DNA of 64,000 bases from assembly GCA_040954595.2 (NCBI GenBank), contig CM082595.2, forward strand, positions 8,042,317 to 8,106,316, in the 5' to 3' direction. The position numbers were made by a program, and so were the translations under genes. The notes below the pieces were generated by a model. It saw nothing but the letters and a program-made list of their open reading frames with translations, was not told the DNA's origin and did no database searches. This document shows positions 29,445 to 57,600 of this stretch, in pieces. The number at the start of each line of letters is the position of its first letter. Within the stretch, counting starts at the first letter, position 1. Source of the stretch: Balanoglossus misakiensis. Its lineage: Eukaryota > Animalia > Hemichordata.

Positions 29445-30063
29445 TAATACTTGTAACGACGCCGCCACCTAATACTGTACTGGAGAGATGAACTTAATAC
29501 TTGTAACGACGCCGCCACCTAATACTGTACTGGAGAGATGAACTTAATACTTGTAACGACGCCGCCACCTAATACTGTACTGGAGAGATGAACTTAATAC
29601 TTGTAACGACGCCGCCACCTAATACTGTACTGGAGAGATGAACTTAATACTTGTAACGACGCCGCCACCTAATACTGTACTGGAGGGATGAACTTAATAC
29701 TTGTAACGACGCCGCCACCTAATACTCTACTGGAGGGATGAACTTAATACTTGTAACGACGCCGCCACCTAATACTGTACTGGAGGGATGAACTTAATAC
29801 TTGTAACGACGCCGCCACCTAATACTGTACTGGAGAGATGAACTTAATACTTGTAACGACGCCGCCACCTAATACTGTACTGGAGGGATGAACTTAATAC
29901 TTGTAACGACGCCGCCACCTAATACTGTACTGGAGGGATGAACATAATACTTGTAACGCCGCCGCCACCTAATACTGTAACTGGAGGGATGAACTTAATA
30001 CTTGTAACGACGCCGCCACCTAATACTGTACTGGAGGGATGAACTTAAACTTGTAACGACGCC
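29445..30063. repeat. 50-bp minisatellite, ~12 copies
   Basis: Unit taatacttgtaacgacgccgccacctaatactgtactggag(a/g)gatgaact. Confidence 0.97.
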
Positions 30064-31045: not shown

Positions 31046-31996
31046 CTTTCGTCATCGTAATTCCCGCATCAACACGAATCCTCAATCTCACGTAACAACA
31101 ATACATCAAAATGTACACAGAAAAATAGGAGTCGGCAAGACAATTCTGGTTAGTGTGAGCCCCAACCTTTTAAAATTCACAACGGGGGAGGGGGCAGTTT
31201 TTCCTCATTTTATATTTGGCTCGAGGTTTTTAACTGTCCCCAGGCGCGTAAAGTTAGTTAGTTTATCACACAGAATGTAATTATCTTGCTTGATTTAAAA
31301 AAACACTAAAATTGTATGGGGAGCTTCTTGCGATTTGTACTTAAGAAACTGATGGTTTTTACCCATAGGTAATAATTAGTATTAACACATAATTGCCTAG
31401 AAATAAAAATTAACTCAAGGGTAGAATGCAACAGTTTATTTTGTGCAATATCAACAGGAGCTATTTTGGCACATTATTTCAGTTTGATAAACACTGTTTT
31501 TGCTCATTGTTTCATTTCGACCACATTATTTCAGTTTGATAAAAACTGTTTTTGCTTATTGTTTTATTTCAACCACTTTTGTCACCTTGTTTTAAATTGA
31601 ATGCAAGCATTGTTTCTGTTTGACCACTACTTGGGGTAATTGTTCCAAATTGGTATGCAAGATATTTTACATCAGCAGTTAGCCATCTAGCCACACTTTA
31701 GCTGCACAGCATATGAAAAATAATGAAATTCATGCAAAAAGCAAAAAAGTATTATGGGTATAATGCCATTGCAGCATTGGCGGTTCGACTCCGTCGATAC
31801 TTACTTTGAAGCATAAGTCTTCATTATTTTTCATATGTAATAAATAAAACTATTCCAAATTCATATCTTTGTTTTCAGTTTGTGCTTTTGCTTCAGTTAG
31901 GGGGCCCACACTTACCAAACCTGTCTTGCCATCTTTTCACATTTCTTTAAATATGCAGCGCCAGCAGTAGGCAGTATTTGATCAAATTGACCAACA

Positions 31997-34900
31997 AATC
32001 ACTCAAAATTAATAGGCAGGATACTGTCCACTCTGGCCTGGTTACTGTCTGGCCTGGTTAATGTTGACGCAAAGGTTGACTCCACCAAACACTCAAAATT
32101 AATGGACAGGATACTGTCCACTCTGGCCTGGTTACAGTGTGCTCTGGTTAATGTTGACGCAAAGGTTGTCCACCAAACACTCAAAATTAATGGACAGGAT
32201 ACTGTCCACTCTGGCCTGGTTACTATCTGGCCTAGTTAATGTTGACGCAAAGGTTGACCCCACCAAACACTCGAAATTAATGGGCAGCATACTGTCCACT
32301 CTGGCCTGGTTACTATCTGGCCTGGTTAATGTTGACGCAAAGGTTGACCCCACCAGACACTCAAAATTAATGGACAGGATACTGTCGACTCTGGCCTGGT
32401 TACTATCTGGCCTGGTTAATGTTGACGCAAAGGTTGACCCCACCAGACACTCAAAATTAATGGACAGGATACTGTCGACTCTGGCCTGGTTACTGTCTGG
32501 CCTGGTTAATGTTGACGCAAAGGTTGACCCCACCAAACACTCGAAATTAATGGGCAGAATACTGTCCACTCTCTGCCTGGTTACTTTCAGGCCGGGTTAA
32601 TGTTGACGCAAAGGTTGACCCAACCAAACACTCGAAATTAATGGGCAGGATACTGTCCACTCTAGCCGTGTTACTGTCTGGCCTGGTTAATGTTGACGCA
32701 ACGGTTGACCCCACCAAACACTCGAAATTAATGGGCAGAAAACTGTCCACTCTCAGCCTGGTTACTGTCTGGCCTGGTTAATGTTGACGCAAAGGTTGAC
32801 CCAACCAAACACTCGAAATTAATGGGCAGAATACTGTCCACTCTGGACATGTTACTGTCTGGCCTGGTTAATGTTGACGCAAAGGTTGACCCCACCAAAC
32901 ACTCGAAATTAATGGGCAGAATACTGTCCACTCTGGCCTGGTTACTGTGTGCTCTGGTTAATGTTGACGCAAAGGTTGACCCCACCAAACACTCGAAATT
33001 AATGGGCAGAATACTGTCCACTCTGGCCTGGTTACTGTCTTGCCTGGTTAATGTTGACGCAAAGGTTGACCCCACCAAACACTCGAAATTAATGGGCAGA
33101 ATACTGTCCACTCTGGCCTTGTTACTGTCTGGCCTTGTTAATGTTGACGCAAAGGTTGACCCCACCAAACACTCGAAATTAATGGGCAGAACACTGTCCA
33201 ATCTCTGCCTGGTTACTGTCTGGCCTGGTTAATGTTGACGCAACGGTTGACCCCACAAAACACTCGAAATTAATGGGCAGGATACTGTCCACTCTGGCCT
33301 TGTTACTGTCTGGCCTGGTTAATGTTGACGCAAAGGTTGACCCCACCAAACACTTGAAATTAATGGGCAGAATACTGTCCAATCTCCGCCTGGTTACTGT
33401 CTGGCCAGGTTAATGTTGACGCAACGGTTGACCCCACCAAACACTCGAAATTAATGGGCAGGATACTGTCCACTCTGGCCTTGTTACTGTCTGGCCTGGT
33501 TAATGTTGACGCAAAGGTTGACCCCACCAAACACTCGAAATTAATGGGCAGAATACTGTCCAATCTCCGCCTGGTTACTGTCTGGCCTGGTTAATGTTGA
33601 CGCAACGGTTGACCCCACCAAACACTCGAAATTAATGGGCAGGATACTGTCCACTCTGGCCCTGTTACTGTCTGGCCTGGTTAATGTTGACGCAAAGGTT
33701 GACCCCACCAAACACTTGAAATTAATGGGCAGAATACTGTCCAATCTCCGCCTGGTTACTTTCAGGCCTGGTTAATGTTGACGCAAAGGTTGACCCAACC
33801 AAACACTCGAAATTAATAGGCAGAATACTGTCCACTCTCCGCCTGGTTACTGTCTGGCCTGGTTAATGTTGACGCAACGGTTGACCCCACCAAACACTCG
33901 AAATTAATGGGCGGAATACTGTCCACTCTCTGCCTGGTTACTTTCAGGCCAGGTTAATGTTGACGCAAAGGTTGACCCCACCAAACACTCGAAATTAATG
34001 GGCAGGATACTGTCCACTCTGGCCGTGTTACTGTCAGGCCTGGTTAATGTTGACGCAACGGTTGACCCCACCAAACACTCGAAATTAATGGGCAGAATAC
34101 TGTCCACTCTCCGCCTGGTTACTGTCTGGCCTGGTTAATGTTGACGCAACGGTTGACCCCACCAAACACTCGAAATTAATGGGCAGAATACTGTCCACTC
34201 TCTGCCTGGTTACTTTCAGGCCAGGTTAATGTTGACGCAAAGGTTGACCCCACCAAACACTCGAAATTAATGGGCAGGATACTGTCCACTCTGGCCGTGT
34301 TACTGTCAGGCCTGGTTAATGTTGACGCAACGGTTGACCCCACCAAACACTCGAAATTAATGGGCAGAATACTGTCCACTCTCCGCCTGGTTACTGTCTG
34401 GCCTGGTTAATGTTGAGGCAAAGGTTGACCCAACCAAACACTCGAAATTAATTGGCAGAATACTGTCCACTCTGGCCTTGTTACTGTCTGGCCTGGTTAA
34501 TGTTGACGCAAAGGTTGACCCCACCAAACACACAAAATTAATGGGCAGCATACTGTCCACTCTGGCCTGGTTATTGTGTGCTGTGGTTAATGTTGACAAA
34601 CAGGTTGACCCCACTAAACACTCAAAATAAATTGGCAGCATACTGTCCACTCTTGCCTGGTTACTGTGTGCCCTGGATAATGTTGACGCAAAGGTTAACC
34701 CCTACCAAACACTCAAAATTAATGGGCAGAATACTGTCCACTTTGGCCTGGTTAATGTGTGCTCTGGTTAATGTTGACACAAAGGTTGACCCCTACCAAA
34801 CACTCAAAATTAATGGGCAGCATACTGTCCACTCTGGCCTTGTTACTGTGTGCTCTGGTTAATGTTGACAAACAGGTTGACCCCACCAAACACTCAAAAT

Positions 34901-35890
34901 TAATGGGCAGAATACTGTCCACTTTGGCCTGGTTAATGTGTGCTCTGGTTAATGTTGACGCAAAGGTTGACCCCTACCAAACACTCAAAATTAATGGGCA
35001 GCATACTGTCCACTCTGGCCTTGTTACTGTGTGCTCTGGTTAATGTTGACACAAAGGTTGACCCCACCAAACACTCAAAATTAATGGGCAGCATACTGTC
35101 CACTCTGGCCTGGTTACTGTGTGCTCTGGTTAATGTTGACACAAAGGTTGACCCCACAAAACACTCAAAATTAATGGGCAACATACTGTCCACTCTGGCC
35201 TGGTTACTGTGTGCTCTGGTTAATGTTGACGCAAAGGTTGACCCCACAAAACACTCAAAATTAATGGGCAACATACTGTCCACTCTGGCCTGGTTACTGT
35301 GTGCTCTGGTTAATGTTGACGCAAAGGTTGACCCCACCAAACACTCAAAATTAATGGGCAGCATACTGTACACTCTGGCCTGGTTACTGTGTGCTCTGGT
35401 TAATGTTGACGCAAAGGTTGACCCCACCAAACACTCAAAATTAATGGGCAGCATACTGTCCACTCTGGCCTGGTTACTGTGTGCTCTGGTTAATGTTGAC
35501 GCAAAGGTTGACCCCACCAAACACTCAAAATAAATGGGCAGCATACTGTCCACTCTTGCCTGGTTGCTGTGTGCTCTGGTTAATGTTGACGCACAGGTTG
35601 TCCCCACCAAACACTCAAAATTAATGGGCAACATACTGTCCACTCTGGCCTGGTTACTGTGTGCTCTGGTTAATGTTGACGCAAAGGTTGACCCCACCAA
35701 TCACTCAAAATTAATGGGCAGCATACTGTCCACTCTGGCCTGGTTACTGTGTGCTCTGGTTAATGTTGACGGAAAGGTTGACCCCACCAAACACTCAAAA
35801 TTAATGGGCAGCATACTGTCCACTCTGGCCTGGTTACTGTGTGCTCTGGTTAATTTTGACGCAAAGGTTGACCCCACCAAACACTCAAAA
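31997..35890. repeat. 90/91-bp satellite array, ~43 copies
   Basis: Unit aaacactc(a/g)aaattaatgggcag.atactgtccactctggcctggttactgt.tg..ctggttaatgttgacgcaaaggttgaccccacc; it produces the 30-aa periodic ORFs on both strands. Confidence 0.98.
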
Positions 35891-36076: not shown

Positions 36077-36463
36077 GGGACGATGTCAAATAACAAAAAA
36101 TAAGTTTAGCTTGAAACCCCTGCACTCCCCCTTGTAACCTAATTGTTGAATACTGATCAGTGCCTCTTATTATTTCATTATTGTGACAACTCCATATTTA
36201 AACCATAACCAGGATAGAAAAGTACACTATCACACATATTGATATTTCGACAATATTTGAATGAAAACATTTCTTTTCAATTCTGAGTTTACATCAGGTC
36301 TTGATTGATTTTTCTGCTTATAGAATAAGAATATGCAATGTAAAGAATTCTCGACTTACTCAACTATTTTGTTCGATGGAACACTTTTTTGGGTCAAAAC
36401 CCCCACCCCCTAAACTTCAAGAAGTAAGATTTTTATCAGACCTGAATCCTTTGACATCGTCCC
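36077..36463. mobile_element. PIF/Harbinger-type MITE
   Basis: TIR gggacgatgtcaaa / tttgacatcgtccc with tta on both flanks (36074-36076, 36464-36466). Confidence 0.8.
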
Positions 36464-37669
36464 TTAACTTGGCAAGGGGTACTGGAAATTGAGGTGGTTG
36501 TGATGCAACAGGTGTGCCCTCGTGTGTTAATAGAAGAGAGGATGAAGTCAGTGGGCTAACCATTGCTGTTGAGGGCGCTCTTACATATTCGAGGTTGCAG
36601 GTTGAGCTTTGTATCGTTTGCATTTTAAATAAAATGTGTAGAGCTATGGATGAGATCTAATATCCAACATGGAATAGTAAAAAAGGAGTCTTATACCAGT
36701 TCCTGAACAAAAAAAATTAACGTCAGATTTGTTTTCTTGATAAAATTTCACTACAGATTGATACGAAATGTGAGAAAAATTGTCCTCTGCTTTCATTATG
36801 GTCTTGCATCATACCCAGGGTTAGTGTTGGTCATTCAAGTTTAATGAGAAAATTTCCTAAAACACCAATTTGAGGTTTCGTAACACATAACACCCATAGG
36901 GACTTTAACACCAAATTTCAGACACAGCAGACAAATACTTTTAGAGAAGTTTTATTGATCAGAACTAACAATTTCCCCAAATAGGGATAAAACACCAAAA
37001 AATAGAAAACTAAAGATCTCTTCACAACAGGTGGTCTACTCAAGGTACTGCATACCAATTTTCAAAGCAATCCGAACAGCAGTTCTGGAGTCAATTTTCC
37101 ACATTTGAGCTTAGTATAATTTGGGCAATGTCACCTTCATTTGAATGAAACTACAGCAGTTCTCAAGTTTTTTTGCAATATATCGATGCTGAATTGTGCT
37201 ATAAACCTGCATTGGTATGTGTACCGAAACAGATGTAGAAAATATCGCTGTTCTACACTAGTGGTTGTAATAATTCAAACATCTGGTAAGAAAATGAATG
37301 TGTCCTACATTGGCAACAGAATCAGATATCTGGTAGGTAAAAGCTCACATTGGTGTGGATACAAAGTGTGAAGTTGCGTTAATTTTAACAGACACAAGAA
37401 CAGGAACAAAGTAAACAAATTTAAAAAAAGCAACAATTGTCTTAGAACTTACTATGGATGAGAATGGTCTGGAAGACGTACACACCACATATTTTATGCC
37501 AGCTATATAAGTGTAGCTCGTATTAGAAATATTGCTGAAAATGGTCTCTCCCCCCCCCCCCCCCAAATACAAATTTGTGGGTTTTCCTACACCTCGATCA
37601 AATGATTCATCTCACATCCCGAAAAATGTGCATAGTAAATTTTAAAGCTATTAGGAGTACTCTGATAGA

Positions 37670-38270
37670 AAAGTGAACTTGACAAAAAATGCCTTAAAAC
37701 ATAACTTTGCATATTTTAAGCACATTTAATAAAAACAATCTGATTACTGTTATCCCTGGGTTTCTGAATGCCAAATATCAAAGCCATCCCATGTACAGTT
37801 TTTAGGAAGATTTGAAAAGAATTTCTGAACAAACTGCTTTAAAACACAAATTATTACTTTTAAAGGACACTTAAAAAAATCTATTTACTGTTATCCCTAG
37901 GCTTCTGAATACCTAATATCAAAGCCATCTGATGTGCAGTATTTTAGGAAGATTTCAAAAGAACTGAGCAAACAGCCTTAAAACACAAATTTGCATATTT
38001 TAAGCACACTGAAAAAAACTCTATTCACTGTCATTCCTGGGCTTTTGAATACCTAATATCAAAGCTGTCCAATGTGCATTTTTTTGGAGGAGAGTTCAAA
38101 TGAATTAATGAACAAACTGCCTCAAAACACAAATGTACATATTTTAAGCACACTTTTAAAAAATCTTATTACTGTCATTCCTGTGTCTGAGTACCAAATA
38201 TCAAAGTCGTCTGATGTGCACGTTTGATGAAAAAGACTTCTAAAATATTTTTGAAGAAACTATCTTAAAT
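37670..38270. repeat. Degenerate ~140-bp tandem repeat, ~4 copies
   Basis: actgt(t/c)at.cct.ggc/tt.tgaatacc.aatatcaaagc recurs near 37745, 37887, 38027 and 38171. Confidence 0.75.
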
Positions 38271-38405: not shown

Positions 38406-38439
38406 TCAGCGTTTGCCCTTGCTAGGTTTGGTTCTGTAC
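38406..38439 (-). CDS. Tandem OB-fold (HIN-like) gene, probable last coding exon: (R)YRTKPSKGKR*
   Basis: Acceptor cttatttccag|, phase 2 matches the upstream exon; alternatively the protein stops by read-through at 38965. Confidence 0.5.
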
Positions 38440-38968
38440 CTGGAAATAAGAGGCAAATAATTACATTGTAAGAATGGGTGATAAAAATAATCTAATGTTT
38501 GCAACCTGACTGATATTCATTGTCAAGCAACTTTAAGATGTCTGGAGATCTTGAAATATTTTTTTCAGGACAATTTGGTTACATCTTACTAATACAATCT
38601 CCAAGATCCTACACACCAAACTTGAAAGAAATCTGATAAGTGGATTCAGAGAAAATGATTCGGTCAAAAAACGGAAAGAATTGCCCTCAAGAGAGAATTA
38701 TTCAAAGTTCACTACAATTTTAAGCGAGTAAGGAAATCTCTAGGAAGCTTGCAAACGAAGTTTCAAAGCAATTGGACCATTGGTTTCAGATATTTTTAAC
38801 AAACAAAGAATGGCAAAATTTGCTCCAAAAATCCAATCATGCATATGTCAGGACAATCTGAATACATGTTACTGAAAATATCCATAGAAACCTGTACACC
38901 ATGACAGACATTCCACCAATGTGATGAGCTCAGTTGTCACCGACAGCAGACCGAAAAAGTAGTTTTAC

Positions 38969-39103
38969 CTCAATTGTACAACTGTTCCGTTGTCTTTCTT
39001 GTATACAATCTGCACTGGCAGTTTGGATATAATGTCCTCTTCAGAGCCAAGGGAACTGATATCTGCCTTGTATGGCGTGTACACACCATCTATGACCAGA
39101 CAT
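38969..39103 (-). CDS. Tandem OB-fold gene, coding exon 5: (K)CLVIDGVYTPY...NGTVVQL
   Basis: Acceptor ttttttctcttccacag|, donor |gtaaaa, 135 nt, phase 2/2, open. Confidence 0.8.
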
Positions 39104-39493
39104 CTGTGGAAGAGAAAAAAAAGTTCGTGCATTTTTTGGATGAACTTTTTGAAAGGGGAAGACAACACAGCTATGATTTTCTTCACATGTCCCAAGGAAA
39201 GCCAAGTTGGTTTGTGCCAAATACTAAAATGTTATGATTTAAGTATTTTCAATGGATGTGAAATTGACAATATACAACTTGGTTGTAAAAGTGACATTTT
39301 TAATCATAACCAGGTTATACTACTGGTCAGAACAGAGTGCATGCTCGTGTATTAATAGTATTTTTGGCAGATGAGATCACCATCAGACGTTGTCCAATAT
39401 GAAGAATTTAAATTTGGTGTCGTTTGTCAAGTAGTTTAGCCAAAGATAACGCCACACTGACATGTGTGGAAGTGATAATGAAGATGTACTAAC

Positions 39494-39561
39494 TTCTCGT
39501 CTGTGTCTATTACTTGAAGTGTACCATTTGCCTCAAGAATTTCAGCATCATCTTCTATAGT
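39494..39561 (-). CDS. Tandem OB-fold gene, coding exon 4: TIEDDAEILEANGTLQVIDTDE
   Basis: Acceptor ttattttcag|, donor |gttagt, 68 nt, phase 0/2. Confidence 0.8.
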
Positions 39562-40197
39562 CTGAAAATAAGTATGAGACATATTAGTGAATCTGAAATA
39601 TCTGTATAGTAGTGTTGATAGTGTGTAGTGACTGTTAGAAAACACATTAAAGCCCCAGTATTTCTCATTTTGACAATTTTTCATCATCAAAAATTTCCTG
39701 TTTTTTCCGCATTCATCTTGGAATACTAGATAATGAAGATATTAGCAAGATTTGTGCTGCTGTAACTATGTGCAAACCCTAAATATTGCCTGTAAAATTT
39801 GAAATGACCGACAGGTTTGTTTACAACAGAAATGGTGCATATGTGAATTTTTGCGAGTTTCTTCAAAAATTTACTAGATTTGCGACAATCAAACCTCTTC
39901 AGTGTGGGTTCTATAAATGTTATGCATGGCTGAATCTGTGTACATTTAGTTGTATAGGCACAGCAGGGGTTAGATTGGATTCCATGTGTCAACAAAGCCT
40001 GACTTTCTGTCCGGACAGAAAGTCATTTTCAATTGTTATATTGAAAAGTATATACATTTGTGAGCAGGGCTGGTCATAAAAACTGTGAGAGTCATTATCA
40101 ATTATTATCTACTTTTAGAAATTGAAGATATTTCAAACAAAAATATGTCGAAACAAGAAATACTGAGGCTGAATTTTGACAGTGGATGAATACTGAC

Positions 40198-40404
40198 CTT
40201 TAATTTTGTGGAGACTGTGCTATTGACATGATTGACATCCTTGTACTTGTCTACGATTACTGGTCCAATTTTCCCTTTTGCACCTTCTCTGACTTGCAGG
40301 TCACACTGTTTGCCCCAAAGGTTCATTTGCATTGACCTCAAACCATCTGTTAAAACGATATCTCTTCTACGTGTTTTATTTGTTGTTTGCTGTTCGTGCG
40401 AAAC
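40198..40404 (-). CDS. Tandem OB-fold gene, coding exon 3: VSHEQ...RRRDIVLTDGLRSMQMNLWG...STKLK
   Basis: Acceptor tttctttacatttag|, donor |gtcagt, 207 nt, phase 0/0; RDIxLxD...LWG is a typical RPA-like OB-fold motif. Confidence 0.88.
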
Positions 40405-40771
40405 CTAAATGTAAAGAAATTAAATTCCAAGGTGATACTGTGCAATGGAAATGTGTCTTGACTGGTACAAGTAATGCTAGTCAATTGGTGAAATAAGAGT
40501 AAGAAAAGGTGTTGTTTAGTATGGTAAGTTTACAGTTATTGATGTGAAATTAAATTATTCTTACCGAAGCATTTTCTGCCTGTATAATTTTGGATGACAA
40601 TCAGAAATCATCAAGATAAGAATTTTAACCTGCAATGTTGTAGAAATTAGTCATCACTGTGAGGAATCATGGGGAGAACAGTCAATTTGCATAGAAATCT
40701 ATTGGGGGAAAGTAGGCGTTATTGTCTGAGTAAACAAAATATTTTGTCATAATGTGTGCATATGTGATTAC

Positions 40772-40912
40772 CTTATCAATTCTAGCCACAACACTGACCC
40801 TCCTTTTTCGAGGCGAGTGCTGTAAATCAGCTAGTGGGACCTCCTCTGGTTCATTGAATAGTTTCTCCTGTTCTTTTTCAACTTTGAATGCATTGTTCCC
40901 AGTACGGGCAAT
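40772..40912 (-). CDS. Tandem OB-fold gene, coding exon 2: IARTGNNAFKV...RVSVVARIDK
   Basis: Acceptor ttttttcctttttgccgtag|, donor |gtaatc, 141 nt, phase 0/0, open. Confidence 0.85.
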
Positions 40913-41480
40913 CTACGGCAAAAAGGAAAAAAAATCAATTAAAATGTAAAGCGATATTATTTGAAGATTACAACATGTAAGTGAAAATTCGGGAATGGGT
41001 CATGAAATAAATCTCGTTTTTGAATAAATTAGGGGCAAGATCTAAAGTTCAATAAAAGTAACTTAATTGTTTAAAAGTTTGGTCTCAGACCCACCCCCCC
41101 ACTCTAACTAAACAGACCGAAAATTGAAAAACATTCGAAGCGTACCCTGCATTAATTCTTTCAGACAGCGTACTATTACATTGAGTGAAAACAGAAAACC
41201 ATTATTAATTGACAAAAATATTCATATTGCAACACAACAAAAAGCAGTCTTGAAATCTTTCGTTTTGCCAAAAAGTCGAATCGTTTTTGACTGCAGACAT
41301 GAATTTGGCCCAAAAACCCAACCCCCAAACTTGATCATTTTTTTGTAAACATCAATCTTTTGACGTTGCCGTTTAGTAGAGAGAAAAGACGAGATCTATC
41401 GGAATTGTAATATCATGCGATGTCGAGTTTTGAGGTTTATAGAGGGAACTGACGATTAAAGGGTCAAGACAAGTGTTCAC

Positions 41481-41720
41481 CTTGGTATATTTGTTGACGC
41501 CAATCCCACCGTCTCGACAATTAGTGAACCGCCGTAGTTCCAGAAATGTGCCTTTTGTGAATTTATCGACGCACCCGTCTTTCCAGATTTTAATTTCATG
41601 GAAGTGGCCGTTGTCGTCGATTGCTGTTAAGTTGTAGAAGGGTCCAGTTGCGGCGTAACGCTCTTCAGGTTCTTCCAGAACCTTTATTTTTATGGCTAGA
41701 TCTTGACTGTTGGTTGCCAT
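41481..41720 (-). CDS. Tandem OB-fold gene, coding exon 1: MATNSQDLAIKIKVLE...VNKYTK
   Basis: aaaATGG Kozak context, acceptor ttcacag| at 41744, donor AAG|gtgaac; 80 aa with a beta-rich OB-fold pattern. Confidence 0.85.
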
Positions 41721-42065
41721 TTTCAGACTGGGATCTGATGCAACCTGTGAACAAGTGGATAATGGTATTTATGAGTTCATGAAAACAGTAGACAGTTGCA
41801 GCGAAGTTAGACAATTTCTCCTGAGAGCTGTGATTGTGTTAATGATGATTGCGTCGAACGCTAGACGAATGATTCTTGTACACATTGATATGTCTATGAT
41901 AATAAATCATAATACCGACTGGTAACGTATTCAGGCAAAACTGGTGAAACGGTTGTCATGCAATCTTGTCCTGAATAAAATTTGAAATGCTGTGACATGG
42001 TTTCGCAATAACGCAAAGGCATTCCTTTTAGTATTACCATACAAATAGGAAAAAACTTTACTCAC

Positions 42066-42320
42066 TTGCTTATTTAATGATTCCTTGTGGACGACAGGCA
42101 CTTCTGGGTGTCGGACACATTTTCAGTACACGTCACTGAGACGCACTTCTGGATGGCGGACACTTTTTTTCCAAGTATACGTCACTGAGACGCACAGGAC
42201 AGAAACTTTTCTCCTAGCAGGTTTCCGTAAAAATGACCCACGCCAGAGCACGAGGGTGGGTTTATATACTGCTCATGAATATTCAGTGGATTCTGAGCCT
42301 GCAAAGTCCGAACCAATGGC
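42066..42320 (-). promoter_or_regulatory. Core promoter and 5' UTR exon of the OB-fold gene
   Basis: TATATAAA at 42268-42261, Inr-like TCATTTT with +1 near 42234 (~32 nt downstream), CCAAT at ~42313, donor |gtgagt at 42065. Confidence 0.65.
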
Positions 42321-45300: not shown

Positions 45301-45600
45301 AAAGTTTTATATTAATTAAACTGTTTTGACAAGTGCTCTACATATCAGACAAAATTGTTTGTTAATCTTTCAAATGTTAAATTTTATCAAAAGCCAAATT
45401 TAAAATGGTAAAAACATGCTTCTTGAGGGTCTTTTTTCAGGTCATACACACAATAAGAAAACTGTATTTTGATGCATAGATGCTGTTTTTTTTTAAATAT
45501 ATATTTGATGAACAGAGAATATCATTTGTAAAAAATTGGCCATTATCAAGTGAAACTATGTATTACTATATGTTACTTTTGGAAGCTTGTGCAAAATTTT

Positions 45601-48600
45601 TTAGGGCACAAGCCCAGCAGGCTTGTGCCCTATTGTTTTTACTGGAGTTTTTAGGGCACAAGCCCAGCAGGCTTGTGCCCTATTGTTTTTACTGGAGTTT
45701 TGAGGGCCCAAGCCCAGCAGGCTTGGGCCCTATTTAGGGCCCAAGCCAAGCAGGCTTGGGCCCTATTGGTATTACTGGCTTTTTTCTTCTTCTTCTTCAG
45801 TCGTTTTTTCGGCCAGCTAGATCTGGAAAACGGCCAAACCTACCAATTTCAAACTTGGCACAATGGTGCAGGCCTATGAGAGCATGATCTGTACCCTTGT
45901 GAATGTTTAATTATTCACGTGACCTAATGACCATATATGGGCAAAATTTTCAAATCGGCCTTATTTGCATATGAATGGAGATATCAAAATTCTGTTAAGA
46001 TACTTTGTGGGCCATATGGCCAGGGTTCTACATGCCAAATGTCAAGGCCATAGGCCATGTCAATTTTGAGAAGAAGATTTTTAAGTATTATTTTTCATAT
46101 TTTTTCGCCCAAGCCATCGGCCTATACTTTACATAGTAAAGCTATGACCACATATTATTTTGGATAAATATGCATACATATCTCAAAATCTGTAAGGCCG
46201 ATCATCTCCAACTTTGGTGTGCAGCTAGCCTAGCATTTGTCGATAATTTTAAGCGAAAAAAAATAATATGAAAAATCGACCGATTTTTTTATATTAATTT
46301 CTTTATTAAATTTATACCTTTACTTATACCTCTATGGTTAAGCTATGTCCATGTCTTATTGTGGAATTCTGGTCTGTGCAATAGTCCTGTACAGTGACTG
46401 TCTATTGGTCAGTGAGTACAATGGCACCAAAATAAAAGCCAACATTTTAGGCTCACCTGTAACACCTGCTTAACTCATTAATTATGTGCATACCTAATTC
46501 TGGGCTAACTAAGAGGGCTATAGGTTTCGTTCTTGTGGGGCATGGACCAGTAAAGGGTCAAAATTTCTTGCCCGAATTTTGGGTGACCTCAGGTGACCTT
46601 TGACCTACTTTCCTATATCTCGGCATCTAGAGCAGGTACAGACTTGGCGTTTGGAGGGTTGGGACTAAAATTGAAAAGCCAAAATGGGGGTCACCTGTGA
46701 CACCTGCCTATCTCATTAATTATGTGCATACCTAATTCCAGGCTAACCAATAGGGCTATAGGTTTGGTTTTTGTTGAACATGGACCAGTATAGGGTCAAC
46801 ATTTCTTGCCCAAATTTTGCATGACCTCAGGTGACCTTTGACCTGCTTTACCATTTCTTGGCATCCAGAGCAGGTACAGACTTGGCGTTTGGAGGGTTGG
46901 GACTAAAATTGAAAAGCCAAAATTAGGGGTCACCTGTGACACCTGCCTACCTCATTAATTATGTGCATACCTAATTCCAGGCTAACCAATAGGGCTATAG
47001 GTTTGGTTTTTGTTGAACATGGACCAGTATAGGGTCAAAATTTCTAACCCAAATTTTGCATGACCTCAGGTGACCTTTGACCTACTTTACCGTATTTTGG
47101 CATCCATAGAAGATATGCTTATTGCTATTTTGCTATGTGCTATGTTGGCTTGGGCCTGCTATTGCTGCTTGCAGCTATATTGTTTTTACTGGAGTTTTTT
47201 AGGGCACAAGCCCAGCAGGCTTGTGCCCTATTGTTTTTACTGGAGTTTTTCTTCTTCTTCTTCTTGTGCCGTTTTTTTCGTCAAGTACATCTTGAAAATG
47301 GCTGAACCTACAAATCTCAAACTTGGCACAATGGTGCAGGCCAATAAGAGCATGAGCTGTACCCTTGTGAATGTTTAATAAGTCATGTGACCTGACGACC
47401 ATATTTGGGCAAAAATTTTCAAATCGGCCTTATTTGCATATGCATGGAGATATCAAAATTCTTTTAGCAACTTTTGCTGACCATGGGGTCATTGTCCTAC
47501 ATGCCAAATTTCAAGGCCATAGGCCATGTCAATTTTGAGAAGAAGATTTTTAAGTATTATTTTTCATATTTTTCGCCCAAGCCATGGGCCTATACGTTAC
47601 ATAGTAAAGCTATGACCACATATTATTTTGGATAAATATGCATACATATCTCAAAATCATCTCAAACTTTGGTGTGCAGCTAGCCTAGCATTTGTCAATC
47701 ATTTTAAGCGAAAAAAAATAATATGAAAAATCGACCGATTTTTTTATATTAATGTTTTAAATTAAATTTATACCTTTTTACTTAAAGGTATACGGTCACC
47801 TCCAATTTACATATCGCCATATATAGTTGAAATGGCGTATTTGAGTGTTCTAAAGAACGCTTTATGTTCGCGTGTGCCACCCACTGAAAATATGTGATTG
47901 GTTAGATCTCGATTTACCATGGTAACTGTGGCTAAATTTGTATAGGTGACCGTATACCTTTAATATACCTCTATAGTTAAGCTATGTACACGTCTTAGTG
48001 TGGAATTCTGGTCTGTGCAACGGTCCTGTACAGTGACTGTCTATTGGGCAATGAGCACAATGGGACCAAAATAACAGGCAAAATTTCGGGCTCACCTGTA
48101 ACACCTGCTTAACTAATGAATTATGTGCATACCTAATTCCGGGCTAACTAATAGGCCTAGAGGTTTTGTTCTTGTGGGACATGGACCAGTATAGGGTCAA
48201 AATTTCTTGCCCAAATTTTGGGTGACCTCAGGTGACCTTTCACCTACTTTACCATATCTTGGCATCCAGAGCAGGTACAAACCTGGCGCTTGCAGGGTTG
48301 GGACTAAAATTGAAAAGCCAGAATGGGGGTCACCTGTGACACCTGCATATCTCATTAATTATGTGCATACCTCATTCCAGGCTAACCAATAGGGCTATAG
48401 GTTTGGTATTTGTTGAACATGGATCAGTATAGGGTCAACATTTCTTGCCCAAATTTTGCATGACCTCAGGTGACCTTTGGCCTACTTAACCAGATCTTGG
48501 CATCCATAGCAGGTACAGACATGGCGTTTGGAGGGTTGGGACTAAAATTGAAAAGCCAAAATTGGGGGTCACCTGTGACACCTGCCTACCTCATTAATTA

Positions 48601-51600
48601 TGTGCATACCTAATTCCAGGCTAACCTATAGGGCTATAGGTTTGGTTTTTGTTGAACATGGACCAGTATAGTGTCAAAATTTCTTGCCCAAATTTTGCAT
48701 GACCTCAGGTGACCTTTGACCTACTTTTCCATATCTTGGCATCCAGAGCAGATATGCTTATTGCTATGTTGCTATGTGCTATGTTGGCTTGGGCCCGCTA
48801 TTGCTGCTTGCAGCTATATTTAGGGCCCAAGCCCAGCAGGCTTGGGCCCTATTGGTATTACTGGGGTTTTTACGGGCCCAAGCCAAGCCAGGCTTGGGCC
48901 CGTATTGGTTTCGTTGGGGTTTTTCTTTCTTTCTTTCTTTATTCTTGGTTCATTTCTTTCGCGCTCTAGATCTCAGACACCGCTGCAGGTACAGTTCTCA
49001 AACTTGCTACAGTGGTCAAGGTCAATGAGTAGATGTGCAGTGACTTGTGAATACTTAATTAGTCACGTGACATGGCGGCCATATTGGATTTTCTGAAAAA
49101 TGCAAATCTCAGATCTCAGAAACTACAAGTCAGATCGACTTCAGATTTGGCGTGCTGGTAGTATACCCTCTGCCCATCATTTTTGTAATTGGATATTTTG
49201 CTGTCAATGTTGCAGTTTTTTTGCTACAGTTGTTTTTCTGAAATCTGGTCAAAATTTCAAAAATCTTCTTCTCCAGAACCGGTGATAACCGAGACACGCC
49301 GTTTGGGTTATGTGGTCACCTAACTGATGTCTATCAAGTTTGCGAAGATCATTGTGATTGGTCAAAGATTATGGCGGCCATATTGAATTTTCGAAAAACC
49401 ATAGTAAAACTTCAAAAATCTTCTCCTCCAGAACGGGCGATAACCGAGTCACAAGATTTGGTGTGTGTGGTCATTAAACGGATGTCTATCAAGTTTGCGA
49501 AGGGGAATGTGATTGGTTGAAGATTATGGCGGCCATATTGGATTTTGTGAAAAACGATTAAAAAGTAAAAATTCCTTTTCTAGCCTAAAAATTGATAGCA
49601 CAGAAATTCTTTTTATGGATATGAATCATCATATGACAAGAATAAGCTATAAATATTTTAGTAATTTTGGCAATGACCTTTGACCTTCTTTTGACGAATC
49701 ATTTTTCTGCATATCTAATTCCAGGCTAACCAATAGGGCTATAAGTTTGGTTTTTGATGTATGTGGATTTGTATGTGATCAAAAAATTTTGCTACTTTTC
49801 ATGACCCCTTTGACCTCTGGTGACCTCATTAAATATGCATATACCTAATTACAGATGAACCAATAGACCTAGAGGTTTTGTTTTTGTTATACATGGACCA
49901 GTATGGGGTCAAAATATTTTGCCCAAATGTTGGGTGACCTCGGGTGACTTTTGACCTACTTAACACTATATTAGCATCAGATCAGATAATAGAGCTTGGG
50001 CCCGGACAATGCTGCTTGCAGCTTTAATTCTTCTACTTCTTCTTCTTCTTCTTCTTGTGTCGTTTTTTTGTCCAGCTACATCTTGAAAACGGCTGAACCT
50101 ACAAATCTCACATTTGGCACAATGGTGCAGGCCTATGAGAGCTTGTGCAGTACCCTTGTGAATGTGTAATTAGTCATGTGACCTGATGACCATATATGGG
50201 CAAAATTTTCAAATCGGCCTTATTTGCATATGCATGAAGATATCAAAATTCTTTTAGCAACTTTTACGGACCATATGGCCAGGGTTCTACATGCCAAATA
50301 TCAAAGCCATAGGCCATGTCAATTTTGAGAAGAAGATTTTTAAGTATTATTTTTCATATTTTTCGACCAAGCCATGGGCCTATACTTTCCATAGTTAAGC
50401 TAAGACCACATATTATTTTGGATAAATATGCAAACATATCTCAAAATCTGTTGGGCCGATCAAGTCCAAATTTGCTGTGCAGCTAGCCTAGCATTTATCA
50501 ATCATTTTAAGCAGAAAAAATTAATATGAAAAATAGACCGATTTTTTTATATTAATTTTTTTATTAAATTTATCCCTTTTCTTATACCTCTATGGTTAAG
50601 CTATGTCCATGTCTTATTGTGGAATTCTGCTCTGTGCAATAGTCCTGTACAGTGACTGTCTATTGGTCAGTGAGCACAATGGCACCAAAATAAAAGGCAA
50701 AATTTTAGGCTCACCTGTAACACCTGCTTAACTCATTAATTATGTGCATACCTAATTCTGGGCTAACTAAGAGGGCTAGAGGTTTCGTTCTTGTGGGACA
50801 TGGACCAGTATAGGGTCAAAATTTCTTGCCCAAATTTTGCTTGACCTCAGGTGACCTTTGACCTACTTTACCAGATCTTGGCATCCAGAGCAGGTACAGA
50901 CTTGGCGTTTGGAGGGTTAGGACTTAAATTGAAAAGCCAAAATGGGGGTCACCTGTGACACCTGTATATCTCATCAATTATGTGCATACCTAATTCCAGG
51001 CTAACCAATAGGGCTATAGGTTTGGTTTTTGTTGAACATGGACCAGTATAGGTTCAAAATTTCTTGCCCAAATTTTGCTTGACCTCAGGTGACCTTTGAC
51101 CTACTTTACCAGATCTTGGCATCCAGAGCAGGTACAGACTTGGCGTTTGGAGGGTTAGGACTAAAATTGAAAAGGCAAAATGGGGGTCACCTGTGACACC
51201 TGTATATCTCATTAATATGTGCATACCTAATTCCAGGCTAACCAATAGGGCTATAGGTTTGGTTTTTGTTGAACATGGACCAGTATAGGTTCAAAATTTC
51301 TTGCCCAAATTTTGCTTGTCCTCGGGTGACCTTTGACCTACTTTACCAGATCTCGGCATCCAGAGCAGGTACAGACTTGGTGTTTGGAGGGTTGGGACTA
51401 AAGTTGAAAAGCCAAAATGGGGTTCACCTGTGACACCTGCATATCTCATTAATTATGTGCATACCTAATTCCAGGCTAACCAATAGGGCTAGAGGCTTCG
51501 TGCTTGTGGGACATGGACCAGTATGGGGTTAAAAATAATTTGCCCAAATTTTAGGTGACCTCAGGTGACCTTTGACCTACTTTACCATATCTTGGCATCC

Positions 51601-54600
51601 AGAGCAGATATGCTTATTGCTATGTTGCTATGTGCTATGTTGGCTTGGGCCCGCTATTGCTGCTTGCAGCTATATTCTTCTTCTTCTTCTTCTTCTTGTG
51701 CCGTTTTTTTCGTCAAGTAGATCTTGAAATCGGCTGAACCTACAAATCTAAAACTTGGCACAATGGTGCAGGCCTATGAGAGCTTGAGCTGTACCCTTGT
51801 GAATGTTTAATTAGTCATGTGACCTGATGACCATATATGGGCAAAATTTTCAAATCGGCCTTATTTGCATATGCATGAAGATATCAAAATTCTTTTAGCA
51901 ACTTTTACGGACCATATGGCCAGGGTTCTACATGCCAAATGTCAAGGCCATAGGCCTTGTCAGTTTTGAGAAGAAGATGTTTAAGTATTATTTTTCATAT
52001 TTTTCACCCAAGCCATGGGCCTATACTTTCCATAGTAAAGCTATGACCACATACTATTTTGGATAAATATGCATACATATCTCAAAATCTGTTAGGCCAA
52101 TCATCTCCAACTTTGGTGTGCAGCTAGCCTAGCATATGTCAATAATTTTAAGCGAAAAAAAATAATATGAAAAATCGACCGATTTTTTTATATTAATTTT
52201 TTTATTAAATTTATACCTTTACTTATACCTCTATGGTTAAGCTATGTCCATGTCTTATTGTGGAATTCTGGTTTGTGCAATAGTCCTGTACAGTGACTGT
52301 CTATTGGTCAGTGAGCACAATGGCACCAAAATAAAAGGCACAATTTTAGGCTCACCTGTAACACCTGCTTAACTCATTAATTATGTGCATACCTAATTCT
52401 GGGTTAACTAAGAGGGCTATAGGTTTCGTTCTTGTGGGACATGGACCAGTATAGGGTCAAAATTTCTTGCCCAAATTTTGGGTGACCTCAGGCGACCTTT
52501 GACCTACTTGCCTATATTTCGGCATCTAGAGCAGGTACAGACTTGGTGTTTGGAGGTTTGGGACTAAAATTGAAAAGCCAAAATGGGGGTCACCTGTGAC
52601 ACCTGCATATCTCATTAATTATGTGCATACCTAATTCCAGGCTAACCAATAGGGCTATAGGTTTGGTTTTTGTTGCACATAAACCAGTATAGGGTCAAAA
52701 TTTCTTGCCCAAATTGTGCATGACCTCAGGTGACCTTTGACCTACTTTACCATATCTCGGCATCCAGAGCAGGTACAGACTTGGCGTTTGGAGGGTTGGG
52801 ACTAAAATTGAAAAGCCAAAATTGGGGGTCACCTGTGACACCTACCTACCTCATTAATTATGTGCTTACCTAACTCCAGGCTAACCAATAGGGCTATAGG
52901 TTTGGTTTTTGTTGAACATTGACCAGTATAGGGTCAAAATTTCTTGCCCAAATTTTGTATGACCTCAGGTGACCTTTGACCTACTTTACCATATCTTGGC
53001 ATCCAGAGCAGGTACAGACTTGGCGTTTGGAGGGTTGGGACTAAAATTGAAAAGGCAACACTGGGGGTCACCTGTGACACCCGCCTACCTCATTAATTAT
53101 GTGCATACCTAATTCCAGGCTAACCAATAGGGTTATAGGTTTGGTTTTTGTTGAACATGGACCAGTATAGGGTCAAAATTTCTTGCCCAAATTTTGCATG
53201 AACACAGGTGACCTTTGACCTACTTTACCATATCTTGGCATCCAGAGCAGATATGCTTATTGCTATGTTGCTATGTGCTATGTTGGCTTGGGCCCGCTAT
53301 TGCTGCTTGCAGCTATATTTACGGGCCCAAGCCAAGCCAGGCTTGGGCCCGTATTGGTTTCGTTGGGGTTTTTTACGGGCCCAAGCCAAGCCAGGCTTGG
53401 GCCCGTATTGGTTTCGTTGGAATTTTACTTTCTTTCTTTCTTTCTTTCTTTCTTTATTCTTGTGTCAATTCTTTGACCCACGAGATCTCAGACACCGCTG
53501 CAGGTACACTTCTGAAACTTGCTACAGTGGTCAAGGTCAATGAGTAGTCGTGCATTGAACCCTTGAATTTTTAATTAGTCACGTGACCTGGCGGCCATCT
53601 TGGATTTTCTGAAAAAATGCAAATCTCAGATCTCAGAAACTACAAGTCAGATCGACTTCAAATTTGGCATGCTGGTAGACTACCTTCTGCCCATCATTTT
53701 TGTAATTGGAAATTATGCTGACAAAGTTGCAGTTTTTTGCTACAATTTTTTTTCTGAAATCTGGCTTAAATTTCAAAAATCTTCTTCTCCAGAACCGGTG
53801 ATAACCGAGACACAGGGTTTGGTGTATGTGGTCACCTAACTGATGTCTATCAAGTTTGCGAAGATCATTGTGATTGGTCGAAGATTATGGCGGCCATATT
53901 GGATTTTCGAAAAACCCTAGTAAAATTTCAAAAATCTTCTTCTCAAGAACCGGCGATAAACGAGTCACAAGATTTGGTGTGTGTGGTCATTAAAAAGATG
54001 TCTATCAAGTTTGCTAAGAAGAATGTGATTGGTCGAAGATTATGGCGGCCATATTGGATTTTGTGAAAAACCATTAAAAAGTAAAAATTCCCTTTCTGGC
54101 CTAAAAATTGATAGCACATAAATTCTTTTTAAGGATATGAATCATCATATGACAAGAATAAGCTATAAATATTTTGGTAATTTTGACAATGACCTTTGAC
54201 CTACTTTTGACGCATCCTTTTTCTGCATATCTAATTCCAGGCTAACCAATAGGGCTATAAGTTTGGTTTTTGATGTATGTGGATTTGTATGTGATCAAAA
54301 AATTTTGATACTTTTCATGACCCCTTTGACCTCTGCTGACCTCATTACATATGCACATACCTAATTACAGATGAACCAATAGACCTAGAGATTTTGTTTT
54401 TGTTATACATGGACCACTATGGGGTCAAAATATTTTGCCCAAATGTTGGGTGACCTCGGGTGACCTTTGACCTACTTTTCCATATCTTGACATCCACAGC
54501 AGATACAGCCTTGGCGTTTGGAGGTATGGGGCCATAATGAAAAGCCAAAGTTTTTGGTCACCTGTGACACCTGCTTAACTCATTATTTATGTGCATACCT

Positions 54601-57600
54601 AATTACGGGCTAACCAAAAGGGCTAGAGATCTGGTTTTTGTTGAACATGGACCACTATGGGTCAAAATTTTCTGCCCAAATTGTGGGTGACCTCTGGGTG
54701 ACCTTTGACCTACTTAACACTATATCAACACCAAACATAGATATAAACTTGATATTTCATGGGATAAAACACAGCATTATGTTTCTACTCATTAATTATG
54801 TGCATATCTAATAATCAGATCAGATAATAGAGCTTGGGCCCGGACAATGCTGCTTGCAGCTTTAATCTTTCTTTCTTTCTTTCTTTATTCTTGGTTCATT
54901 TCTTTCGCGCTCTAGATCTCAGACACCGCTGCAGGTACAGTTCTCAAACTTGCTACAGTGGTCAAGGACAATGAGTAGATGTGCAGTGACTTGTGAATAC
55001 TTAATTAGTCACGTGACATGGCGGCCATATTGGATTTTCTGAAAAAATGCAAATCTCAGATCTCAGAAACTACAAGTCAGATCGACTTCAGATTTGGCGT
55101 GCTGGTAGTATACCCTCTGCCCATCATTCTTGTAATTGGATATTTTGCTGTCAATGTTGCAGTTTTTTTGCTACAGTTGTTTTTCTGAAATCTGGTCAAA
55201 ATTTCAAAAATCTTCTTCTCCAGAACCAGCGATAACCGAGTCACGCCGTTTGGGTTATGTGGTCACCTAACTGATGTCTATCAAGTTTGCGAAGATCATT
55301 GTGATTGGTCAAAGATTATGGCGGCCATATTGAATTTTCGAAAAACCATAGTAAAACTTCAAAAATCTTCTTCTCCAGAACGGGCGATAACCGAGTCACA
55401 AGATTTGGTGTGTGTGGTCATTAAACGGATGTCTATCAAGTTTGCGAAGGGGAATGTGATTGGTTGAAGATTATGGCGGCCATATTGGATTTTGTGAAAA
55501 ACGATTAAAAAGTAAAAATTCCTTTTCTAGCCTAAAAATTGATAGCACAGAAATTCTTTTTATGGATATGAATCATCATATGACAAGAATAAGCTATAAA
55601 TATTTTGGTAATTTTGGCAATGACCTTTGACCTACTTTTGACGCATCATTTTTCTGCATATCTAATTCCAGGCTAACCTTTAAGGCTATCATTTTGGTTT
55701 TTGATGTATGTGGATTTGTATGTGATCAAAAAATTTTGCTACTTTTCATGACCCCTTTGACCTCTGCTGACCTCATTAAATATGCACATACCTAATTACA
55801 GATGAACCAATAGACCTAGAGGTTTTGTTTTTGTTATACATGGACCAGTATGGGGTCAAAATATTTTGCCCAAATGTTGGGTGACCTCGGGTGACCTTTG
55901 ACCTACTTAACACTATATCAGCATCAGATCAGATAATAGAGCTTGGGCCCGGACAATGCTGCTTGCAGCTTTAATTAGGGCCCAAGCCCAGCAGGCTTGG
56001 GCCCTATTGGTATTACTGGCTTTTTAGGGCCCAAGCCCAGCAGGCTTGGGCCCTATTGGTATTACTGGCTTTTTTTAGGGCCCAAGCCCAGCAGGCTTGG
56101 GCCCTATTGTTTTTACTGGAGTTTTTAGGGCCCAAGCGCATGCAGCGCTTGGGCCCTATTGGTATTATCCTGGTTTTTACGGGCCCAAGCCAAGCCAGGC
56201 TTGGGCCCGTATTGGTTTCGTTGGGGTTTTTCTTTCTTTCTTTCTTTCTTTCTTTCTTTATTCTTGGTTCATTTCTTTCGCGCGCTAGATCTCAGACACC
56301 GCTGCAGGTACAGTTCTCAAACTTGCTACAGTGGTCAAGGTCAATGAGTAGATGTGCAGTGACTTGTGAATACTTAATTAGTCACGTGACATGGCGGCCA
56401 TATTGGATTTTCTGAAAAAATGCAAATCTCAGATCTCAGAAACTACAAGTCAGATCGACTTCAGATTTGGTGTGCTGGTAGTATACCCTCTGCCCATCAT
56501 TTTTGTAATTGGATATTTTGCTGTCAATGTTGCAGTTTTTTTGCTACAGTTGTTTTTCTGAAATCTGGTCAAAATTTCAAAAATCTTCTTCTCCAGAACC
56601 GGCGATAACCGAGTCACGCCGTTTGGGGTATGTGGTCACCTAACTGATGTCTATCAAGTTTGCGAAGATCATTGTGATTGGTCGAAGATTATGGCGGCCA
56701 TATTGGATTTTCGAAAAACCATAGTAAAACTTCAAAAATCTTCTTCTCCAGAACGGGCGATGACTGAGTCACAAGATTTGGTGTGTGTGGTCATTAAACA
56801 GATGTCTATCAAGTTTGCGAAGGGGAATGTGATTGGTCGAAGATTATGGCGGCCATATTGGATTTTGTGAAAAACGATTAAAAAGTAAAAATTCCTTTTC
56901 TAGCCTAAACATTGATAGCACAGAAATTCTTTTTATTGATATGAATCATCATATGACAAGAATAAGCTATAAATATTTTGGTAATTTTGGCAATGACCTT
57001 TGACCTACTTTTGACAAATCATTTTTCTGCATATCTAATTCATGGCTAACCAATGGGGCTATAAGTTTGGTTTTTGATGTATGTGGATTTGTATGTGATC
57101 AAAAAATTTTGCTACTTTTCATGACCCTTTGACCTCTGGTGACCTCATTAAATATGCGCATACCTAATTAATGATGAACCAATAGACCTAGAGGTTTTGT
57201 TTTTGTTATACATGGACCAGTATGGGGTCAAAATATTTTGCCCAAATGTTGGGTGACCTCGGGTGACCTTTGACCTACTTTTGCATATCTTGACATCCAC
57301 ACCACATACAGCCTTGGCGTTTGGAGGTATGGGGCCATAATGAAAAGCCAAAGTTTTGAGTCACCTGTGACACCTGCTTTACTCATTATTTATGTGCATA
57401 CCTAATTCCGGGCTAACCAAAAGGGCTAGATGTCTGGTTTTTGTTTGACATGGACCACTATGGGTCAAAATTTTCTGCCCAAATTTTGGATGACCTCAGA
57501 TGACCTTTGACCTACTTTTGCATATATCGGCATCCAAAGCAGGTACAGCCTTGGCATTTGGAGGTATGGGGCCATAATGAAAAGCCAAAGTTTTGGGTCA

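Follow-up and report, generated by a model that had tools for sequence, protein, structure and literature searches.

We analyzed a 64,000-nucleotide stretch of the hemichordate Balanoglossus misakiensis genome (assembly GCA_040954595.2, contig CM082595.2, positions 8,042,317 to 8,106,316; hereafter the window) that encodes a predicted tandem OB-fold (oligonucleotide/oligosaccharide-binding fold) protein whose first fold resembles the HIN-200 domain of mammalian AIM2 and IFI16. The gene lies on the minus strand and has six exons and five introns, all GT-AG and of phases 0,0,0,2,2; the joined exons form an open frame of 825 nt encoding 274 aa (Table 1). This structure had been proposed in an original prediction made from the DNA letters and was confirmed, exons 1-5 by alignment with a Ptychodera flava paralog. 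Using exon 3 as a query, one of 436 candidates was a P. flava RefSeq protein (77% identity), whose cluster holds three proteins, with P0003 (288 aa) as a full-length one. P0003 matches the window gene exon by exon over exons 1-5 (57-81% identity per exon, ~75% overall), and its tblastn segments stop at the predicted junctions. A chance exon chain was ruled out by this match, and the comparison indicates that this is a real gene. Exon 1 alone retrieved no relative among 19 candidates, with uninformative PDB and Pfam matches, and exon 3 had no match in the PDB.

The last exon stood only in part. Its acceptor is the sole pyrimidine-rich YAG (>=0.75) in 2.5 kb and is in frame, a frame lacking this splice meets a stop one codon past exon 5, and a search over 11 kb turned up no alternative closer to the P0003 tail. 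Because only one of its ten residues matches P0003, the protein end encoded by exon 6 is uncertain. The TATA and initiator (Inr) elements of the original prediction are present in the sequence; the promoter and a non-coding first exon are predicted.

A phmmer search with P0003 against 1.84 billion representatives gave 34 matches at E <= 0.001. Three of these (P0005, P0029, and P0034) are plain replication protein A (RPA) by their Pfam domains, and most of the others are about 200-300 aa long. Names were looked up for 20 of the 33 new matches. The hosts are oysters, scallops, Priapulus, two nemerteans, a sea star, a sea urchin, a sea cucumber, and two teleosts; more distant P. flava paralogs were also among the named relatives, and a second urchin came from a separate profile search. 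The labels read "uncharacterized" nearly throughout, and some clusters are nameless. Identity to P0003 is 17-26% among the relatives, its near-copy excepted; common to them are the SPxKRR patch, a third domain, and a tryptophan that is invariant. The window protein is a member of this unnamed animal family, whose proteins mostly measure 260-300 aa and have two predicted OB folds (OB1 and OB2) followed by a third beta domain. In the ESM Atlas, the nearest neighbors by features were unnamed mollusc and chordate clusters (0.96 and 0.95), followed by archaeal RPA-like clusters; by structure, an IFI16 cluster stood in row 7 of the 10 listed.

A profile search of a large protein set returned just two already known members among 6663 candidates, so the family size is under-sampled. 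Locus searches found P0003 in 0 of 10 viral contig stretches, P0011 in 0 of 113 metagenomic ones, and P0007 in 1 of 86, where the contig's 1449 bp do not extend far enough to show any context. At L001:433-1236, a family member lies in one unbroken frame, which suggests either that intronless copies exist or that the contig is transcript-derived.

Structure models were built for P0003 rather than for the window protein. The full model, based on a 28-sequence alignment with no mammalian or teleost row, has a mean predicted local distance difference test score (pLDDT) of 86.2. Its layout bears out the tandem OB fold of the original prediction: OB1 spans about residues 8-103 and OB2 about 104-198, with two linker helices (93-100 and 107-112). 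The beta-rich extension of about 75 aa, which had been called a tail, is present; it is a conserved third domain, compact over residues 200-262 and confidently modeled (pLDDT 84-92 over residues 201-260), with three strands, two short helices, and two strands, an order that resembles an OB fold.

In Foldseek, the full model retrieved only HIN chains among the rows listed to rank 36 (E 6e-12 to 5e-10), and RPA70 first appeared at rank 38 (E 1.6e-9). OB1 and the linker were also folded alone because VIA-align leaves HIN and RPA70 unseparated for the two-domain unit. The resulting model (pLDDT 78.7, input alignment again without a mammalian sequence) was compared with 48,161 representative chains. 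The top three were HIN chains (Z 13.7, 13.4, and 12.6), superposed with a root-mean-square deviation (rmsd) of 2.5-2.6 Å over 94-100 of 103 residues; the best non-HIN chain was RPA70 (Z 10.5). When Foldseek's top 1000 for OB1 were realigned by VIA-align, HIN filled the first 22 of the 50 rows listed. The Foldseek template modeling (TM) scores by query were 0.68-0.76 for HIN rows, with p202 HIN2 at 0.59, and 0.52-0.61 for rows of SSB (a protein that binds single-stranded DNA) and RPA; by E-value, a crenarchaeal SSB took fourth place. The OB1-alone and two-domain rankings together therefore make the HIN likeness specific to OB1 and the linker, and OB2 is modeled as a generic SSB/RPA-type fold. 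RPA70 did not rank clearly above HIN in the structure searches, where HIN came first or tied. The top viral Foldseek rows were mostly baculovirus LEF-3 (best E 7.5e-11).

The profile searches gave a weaker picture. A family profile matched mouse AIM2 over both folds (profile positions 8-196, E 1.1e-4), and the family-profile matches with their best stretch in OB1 alone were all HIN (p202, IFI16, MNDA, p204, and p205). A 12-sequence profile matched p202 at E 0.0013 (positions 9-187). On the Pfam HIN profile (PF02760, gathering score 22.7), the best relative reached 20.9 bits, below the gathering score, and weak matches occurred in 2 of 33 relatives, both within OB1 (E 3.3e-4 and 0.1). OB2 of the window pieces and paralogs matched Pfam REPA_OB_2 below cut-off. 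The HIN sequence signal appears weak yet agrees with the fold result. Of the HIN resemblance in the original prediction, the part in OB1 and the linker held and proved specific, while OB2 is nearer crenarchaeal SSB and RPA by sequence; a match to Pfam HIN itself was not obtained. The prediction's absence of a pyrin domain (PYD) was borne out, as no PYRIN match was found in the window protein, in which OB1 begins at about residue 8. On the HIN motifs and on two exon ends of AIM2, the original prediction agrees with Supplementary Figs 3 and 5 of Cridland et al. 2012.

The second HIN exon ends in phase 0. In the supplementary alignments of Cridland et al. 2012 (PMC3458909), the first HIN exon of human AIM2 ends in frame after ...FVVQK, and the alignment of the two HIN exons ends at ...HSTIK. 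In an alignment made by eye, the stretch of 24 residues before the first HIN exon end aligns with the end of window exon 2 without gaps, a linker hydrophobic residue stands 12 steps ahead of the first strand in both proteins, and no gap is needed between the end of window exon 3 and the final 10 residues encoded by the second HIN exon. The two ends of the second HIN exon thus appear by eye to coincide with window introns 2 and 3, as had been proposed. The rough chance of two of three introns falling at both places is 2e-5 if any base is allowed, 1.6e-4 for phase 0 only, and 1.5e-3 if one codon of difference is allowed; under stricter nulls it rises to 3e-3 (AG| sites) and 2e-2 (MAG|R sites). 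Among OB genes, the comparison behind these figures covered HIN only. As judged from the proteins, the truncated gene models of relatives end at the same places as the window introns: those of oyster, sea cucumber, and Lineus at 80|81; P0014 and P0028 at 127|128; and, at 196|197, P0027, P0028, and urchin P0017, with the sea cucumber model ending one codon later.

W157 is present in 28 of 28 rows of the family alignment and position 181 is aromatic in 26 of 28, and both line up with the same motifs of an RPA1. The single-stranded DNA (ssDNA) contacts of RPA70 DNA-binding domain B (DBD-B) are given as W361 and F386 (PMC4937323), while the mammalian HIN alignment has no conserved tryptophan at the OB2 place corresponding to W157. 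HIN is described as binding the backbone of double-stranded DNA (dsDNA) through basic residues, with no base recognition (PMC7969034). Because the family keeps the RPA-type aromatics and HIN, which lacks the conserved tryptophan, binds the dsDNA backbone, ssDNA binding is the likelier activity; by this analogy, the family protein probably binds ssDNA. The net charge is 0 for OB1 and +9 for OB2.

Several observations place the family near mobile DNA. Three P. flava copies are 95-96% identical and lie on three different chromosome-scale contigs, and two Lineus copies are 98% identical on two such contigs. Pfam HIN and Ssb-like_OB are listed among the domains stably carried, almost exclusively, by HLE2 elements (HELIANO listing, PMC11417382), and Helentrons are reported to carry RPA genes (PMC4067079). 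The window gene itself is single-copy within the window, and a non-autonomous element carrying it may remain compatible with the lack of RepHel there. The suggestion of a mobile-element progenitor has indirect support in the dispersed near-identical copies of relatives and the HLE2 cargo list, and no transposase was found in the window frames scanned.

Two gene models among 62 proteins are fusions. In P0031, a family member is followed or preceded by a fragment of HTH_Tnp_4 that scores above cut-off (E 3.7e-7), and P0054 continues into a Cys-rich stretch that looks SWIM-like by eye and that Pfam did not confirm. Both are probably mis-joined models, and as such they point to the neighborhoods of DDE-type elements instead of Helentrons.

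The surroundings are rich in repeats. Upstream, starting 3.3 kb from the promoter, lies an array in which some twelve related units, all non-coding, contain palindromes bounded by GGGCCC, microsatellites of TTC/TTTC, and repeats of 238 bp or 155 bp inside the unit; its anatomy recalls the HINE/DINE-1 non-autonomous Helentrons, and no link to the window gene is drawn from it. Three tandem arrays lie downstream of the gene, and a unit repeated three times near the start of the window carries the same open frame of ~104 codons in each copy, the first without a Pfam match. About 1.8 kb beyond the stop codon, a Ser/Thr/Pro-rich open stretch without a Pfam match runs up to a GT donor and could be an exon of the window gene or of another gene.

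Table 1 Features of the window gene and its surroundings
Feature	Coordinates in the window	Strand	Comment
Coding exon 1	41481..41744, ATG at 41720 (coding 41720-41481)	-	Residues 1-80; most of OB1, predicted HIN-like fold; 62/80 identical to P0003
Coding exon 2	40772..40912	-	Residues 81-127; OB1 end, two-helix linker, SPxKRR motif, first OB2 strand (predicted); 38/47 identical to P0003
Coding exon 3	40198..40404	-	Residues 128-196, phase 0-0; predicted OB2 core with W157 and Y181; 50/69 identical to P0003
Coding exon 4	39494..39561	-	Third beta domain begins (predicted); 13/23 identical to P0003
Coding exon 5	38969..39103	-	Remainder of third domain; 31/45 identical to P0003
Candidate last coding exon 6	38406..38439	-	10 residues and stop; good acceptor; 1/10 identical to P0003; uncertain
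TATA-box-like element	42260..42269	-	Putative
Inr-like TCATT	near 42234	-	Putative; ~34 nt downstream of TATA box
Predicted non-coding first exon	42066..42234	-	Approximate start; GT donor 42066/42065, acceptor 41745/41744; putative
Ser/Thr/Pro-rich open stretch	36420-36656	-	Possible exon
Upstream array	45597-64000		About a dozen units, roughly 1.2-1.6 kb
Tandem array	31991-35890		90 bp x 43
Tandem array	37686-38225		144 bp x 3.8
Tandem array	29445-30063		50 bp x 12
Repeated unit with open frame	about 5300-9760		~1.64 kb x 3

Taken together, we consider it somewhat better than even that the window gene encodes an ssDNA-binding helper of mobile DNA, likeliest of a Helentron-type rolling-circle element, and that its family is the sister group or the source of the mammalian HIN domain. 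The two parts of this reading differ in strength. A specific kinship of the family with HIN is quite probable, while for the gene being mobile-element cargo the balance is only slightly favorable. In the proposed activity, OB1 and OB2 would cover the single strand that is displaced, and W157 and Y181 of OB2 would stack against its bases in the manner of RPA70 DBD-B. The basic SPxKRR patch might add backbone contacts or serve nuclear import, and the acidic third domain might mediate oligomerization or partner binding, which is the weakest step.

A number of results weigh against this reading. The Pfam HIN profile found no match in eight window pieces or three paralogs, SSB and RPA outscore HIN in all three profiles, mainly via OB2, and the AIM2 match drops to E 0.042 once the teleost P0021 leaves the alignment. 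For the two-domain model, the VIA-align scores of p204/p205 HIN (Z 14.6, 187 residues, 6 Å), human RPA70AB-ssDNA (Z 14.4, 189 residues, 6.2 Å), and Tetrahymena Teb1 (15.0-15.3) lie close together, and the rmsd to HIN is 5-6 Å. AlphaFold was trained with HIN structures known to it, and it was a paralog that was modeled. The register to HIN in the intron comparison was set by eye, and shifting the first OB2 strand by two residues (glycines aligned) would undo the first intron match; window intron 1 (80|81) has no HIN counterpart and splits the first HIN exon. On the side of the mobile element, the identity of the HIN-bearing HLE2 cargo with the family of the window gene is assumed. The Pfam scan covered 135 of the 174 window frames of at least 58 aa listed outside the satellite and the upstream array, plus one more frame (of the 174, 3 are the gene's own and were searched separately, and 36 in the first 10 kb lay outside the scan). 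These 136 frames gave no Pfam match at all, and so none to RepHel or another transposase, no open frame exceeds 255 aa in the window, and of the 750 inverted repeats, the 25 longest included no convincing pair of Helentron ends (subterminal inverted repeats, 3' hairpin).

Some of these points would be at home in other explanations. If the family were an RPA70-derived group of paralogs, the HIN likeness would be convergence or model bias and the intron matches would be proto-splice sites. The VIA-align tie, the OB2 matches to REPA_OB_2 and SSB first, the archaeal RPA clusters among the Atlas feature neighbors (with no HIN cluster listed by features), and the strictest intron null of 0.02 all fit this origin, but OB1 is 2-3 Z units nearer HIN than any RPA, the OB1-only profile matches are all HIN, and the RPA N-terminal and zinc-ribbon domains are missing; we regard it as quite unlikely. 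The gene might instead belong to the host and encode a HIN-like protein that binds DNA in genome maintenance or in innate immunity, as a sensor without pyrin or as an antagonist like mouse p202 (described as a HIN-only protein, PMC3478938), expanded by duplication. This would suit the TATA promoter, the probable non-coding first exon, the introns common across phyla, the single copy and lack of a detected transposase in the window, and the charge of OB2. Nevertheless, the protein has no signaling domain, members that are 17-26% identical across lineages exist as dispersed near-identical copies within species, and the RPA-type aromatics are kept, unlike in HIN with its binding of the dsDNA backbone without base recognition. 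Nothing in the analysis points to a sensing role of the window protein, and a host gene seems rather unlikely.

The kinship with HIN could also hold with another carrier: either a DDE-type transposon resembling ISL2EU/Harbinger, whose second gene is a SWIM-exonuclease, or elements of several types. The protein would then handle resected ssDNA instead of rolling-circle intermediates. ISL2EU/Harbinger-like elements carry such second genes, and the P0031 and P0054 models can be read in this direction; against it, they are just two, probably mis-joined, with SWIM unconfirmed by Pfam, the published link found is only to HLE2, and no DDE gene occurs in the window frames scanned, so that such a carrier is unlikely. 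A silent or decaying copy, that is, an unexpressed gene with an intact frame, would agree with the unsupported last exon and the repeat-rich surroundings but hardly with five open exons, splice sites that are all intact, and about 75% identity to the paralog; we judge it very improbable.

Returning to the favored reading of an ssDNA-binding helper of mobile DNA related to HIN, a more far-reaching proposal can be made for the origin of the mammalian domain, which we offer tentatively as possible rather than probable. The HIN domain of AIM2 and IFI16 may descend from a transposon protein that was domesticated. An ssDNA-binding gene borne by a Helentron, from the family that today occurs from molluscs to teleosts, would have had its OB1-OB2 part, ending at the phase-0 intron, joined to an exon for pyrin in an ancestor of the therians, with loss of domain 3 and of the OB2 tryptophan and a shift to dsDNA backbone binding. 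P0021 from the teleost Centroberyx affinis may, in the same proposal, be an independent fusion with a death-fold-like domain, a fish counterpart of the AIM2-like receptors (ALRs). This protein is a family member across the whole OB region (hhalign 99.4%). Its residues about 14-100 form a helical-looking N-terminal domain followed by a charged linker, a layout like PYD-linker-HIN; the domain looks pyrin-like by eye only, and Pfam and PDB sequence searches did not support this likeness.

With this family, the question of where the HIN domain came from becomes directly testable: it is a concrete candidate for the ancestor, and three links can be checked, namely the OB1 structure, the shared exon ends, and a published, unexplored HIN match in Helentrons. 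If the proposal is true, the DNA-binding protein of a mobile element gave rise to a mammalian sensor that detects foreign DNA, living proteins could show how binding switched from single to double strands, and fish members carrying additional N-terminal domains become DNA sensor candidates. Some fish or invertebrate proteins may already bear a HIN-like label from automated annotation. The vertebrates searched by Cridland et al. 2012 (PMC3458909) are reported there to contain no HIN or close relatives outside mammals, and the origin is left there at "an OB fold". The literature covered on HIN origin, non-mammalian HIN, and Helitron cargo (including PMC3478938, PMC7433898, PMC4764838, PMC13076529, and PMC4588145; subscription papers lay mostly outside it) describes, in its openly available parts, neither the family nor a transposon origin of HIN, the nearest contact being the one-line HELIANO listing.

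Among known systems, the HIN-200 domains of the PYHIN/ALR proteins (AIM2, IFI16, MNDA, p202, and p204; PF02760) share with the window protein two OB folds, a two-helix linker, the best structural match of OB1, and an OB2 core on one exon whose ends appear coincident by eye. The window protein differs in having no pyrin domain, an extra third domain, an extra OB1 intron, and a kept OB2 tryptophan, in its 10-17% identity, in falling below the Pfam cut-off, and in lacking the MFHATVAT motif, which is seen across the HIN alignment and is absent from window exon 1 and from the family alignment. A true PYHIN ortholog is ruled out by the missing PYD. The baculovirus LEF-3, another multi-OB ssDNA-binding protein, shares the fold only (TM about 0.3, rmsd about 13-16 Å), and a viral LEF-3 origin is ruled out by this poor TM.

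RPA70 DBD-A/DBD-B, Teb1, and crenarchaeal SSB (PF16900, PF21473) are alike in the OB2 pattern, the aromatic pair, the tandem OB layout, and the tied Z for the two-domain model. Unlike RPA70, the 274-aa window protein has no N-terminal protein-interaction OB and no zinc-ribbon DBD-C, and its OB1 fits RPA70 2-3 Z units worse than HIN. An RPA1 ortholog is ruled out by the missing RPA1 domains; Pfam Rep-A_N and Rep_fac-A_C had no match in P0001-P0003, and both match the true RPA1 P0029. Compared with the accessory genes for ssDNA binding in Helitrons and Helentrons (RPA, Ssb-like_OB, and HIN cargo, PMC11417382; RPA open reading frame, PMC4067079), the window locus lacks a detected RepHel and element ends, and shares a stand-alone OB gene, dispersed near-identical copies (in the genomes of relatives), and, in the published list, Pfam HIN on HLE2. 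The window protein is the closest non-mammalian HIN relative found by the present searches. Its predicted working mode is like that of an SSB/RPA pair and its modeled build is most HIN-like; it is a member of neither PYHIN nor RPA1.

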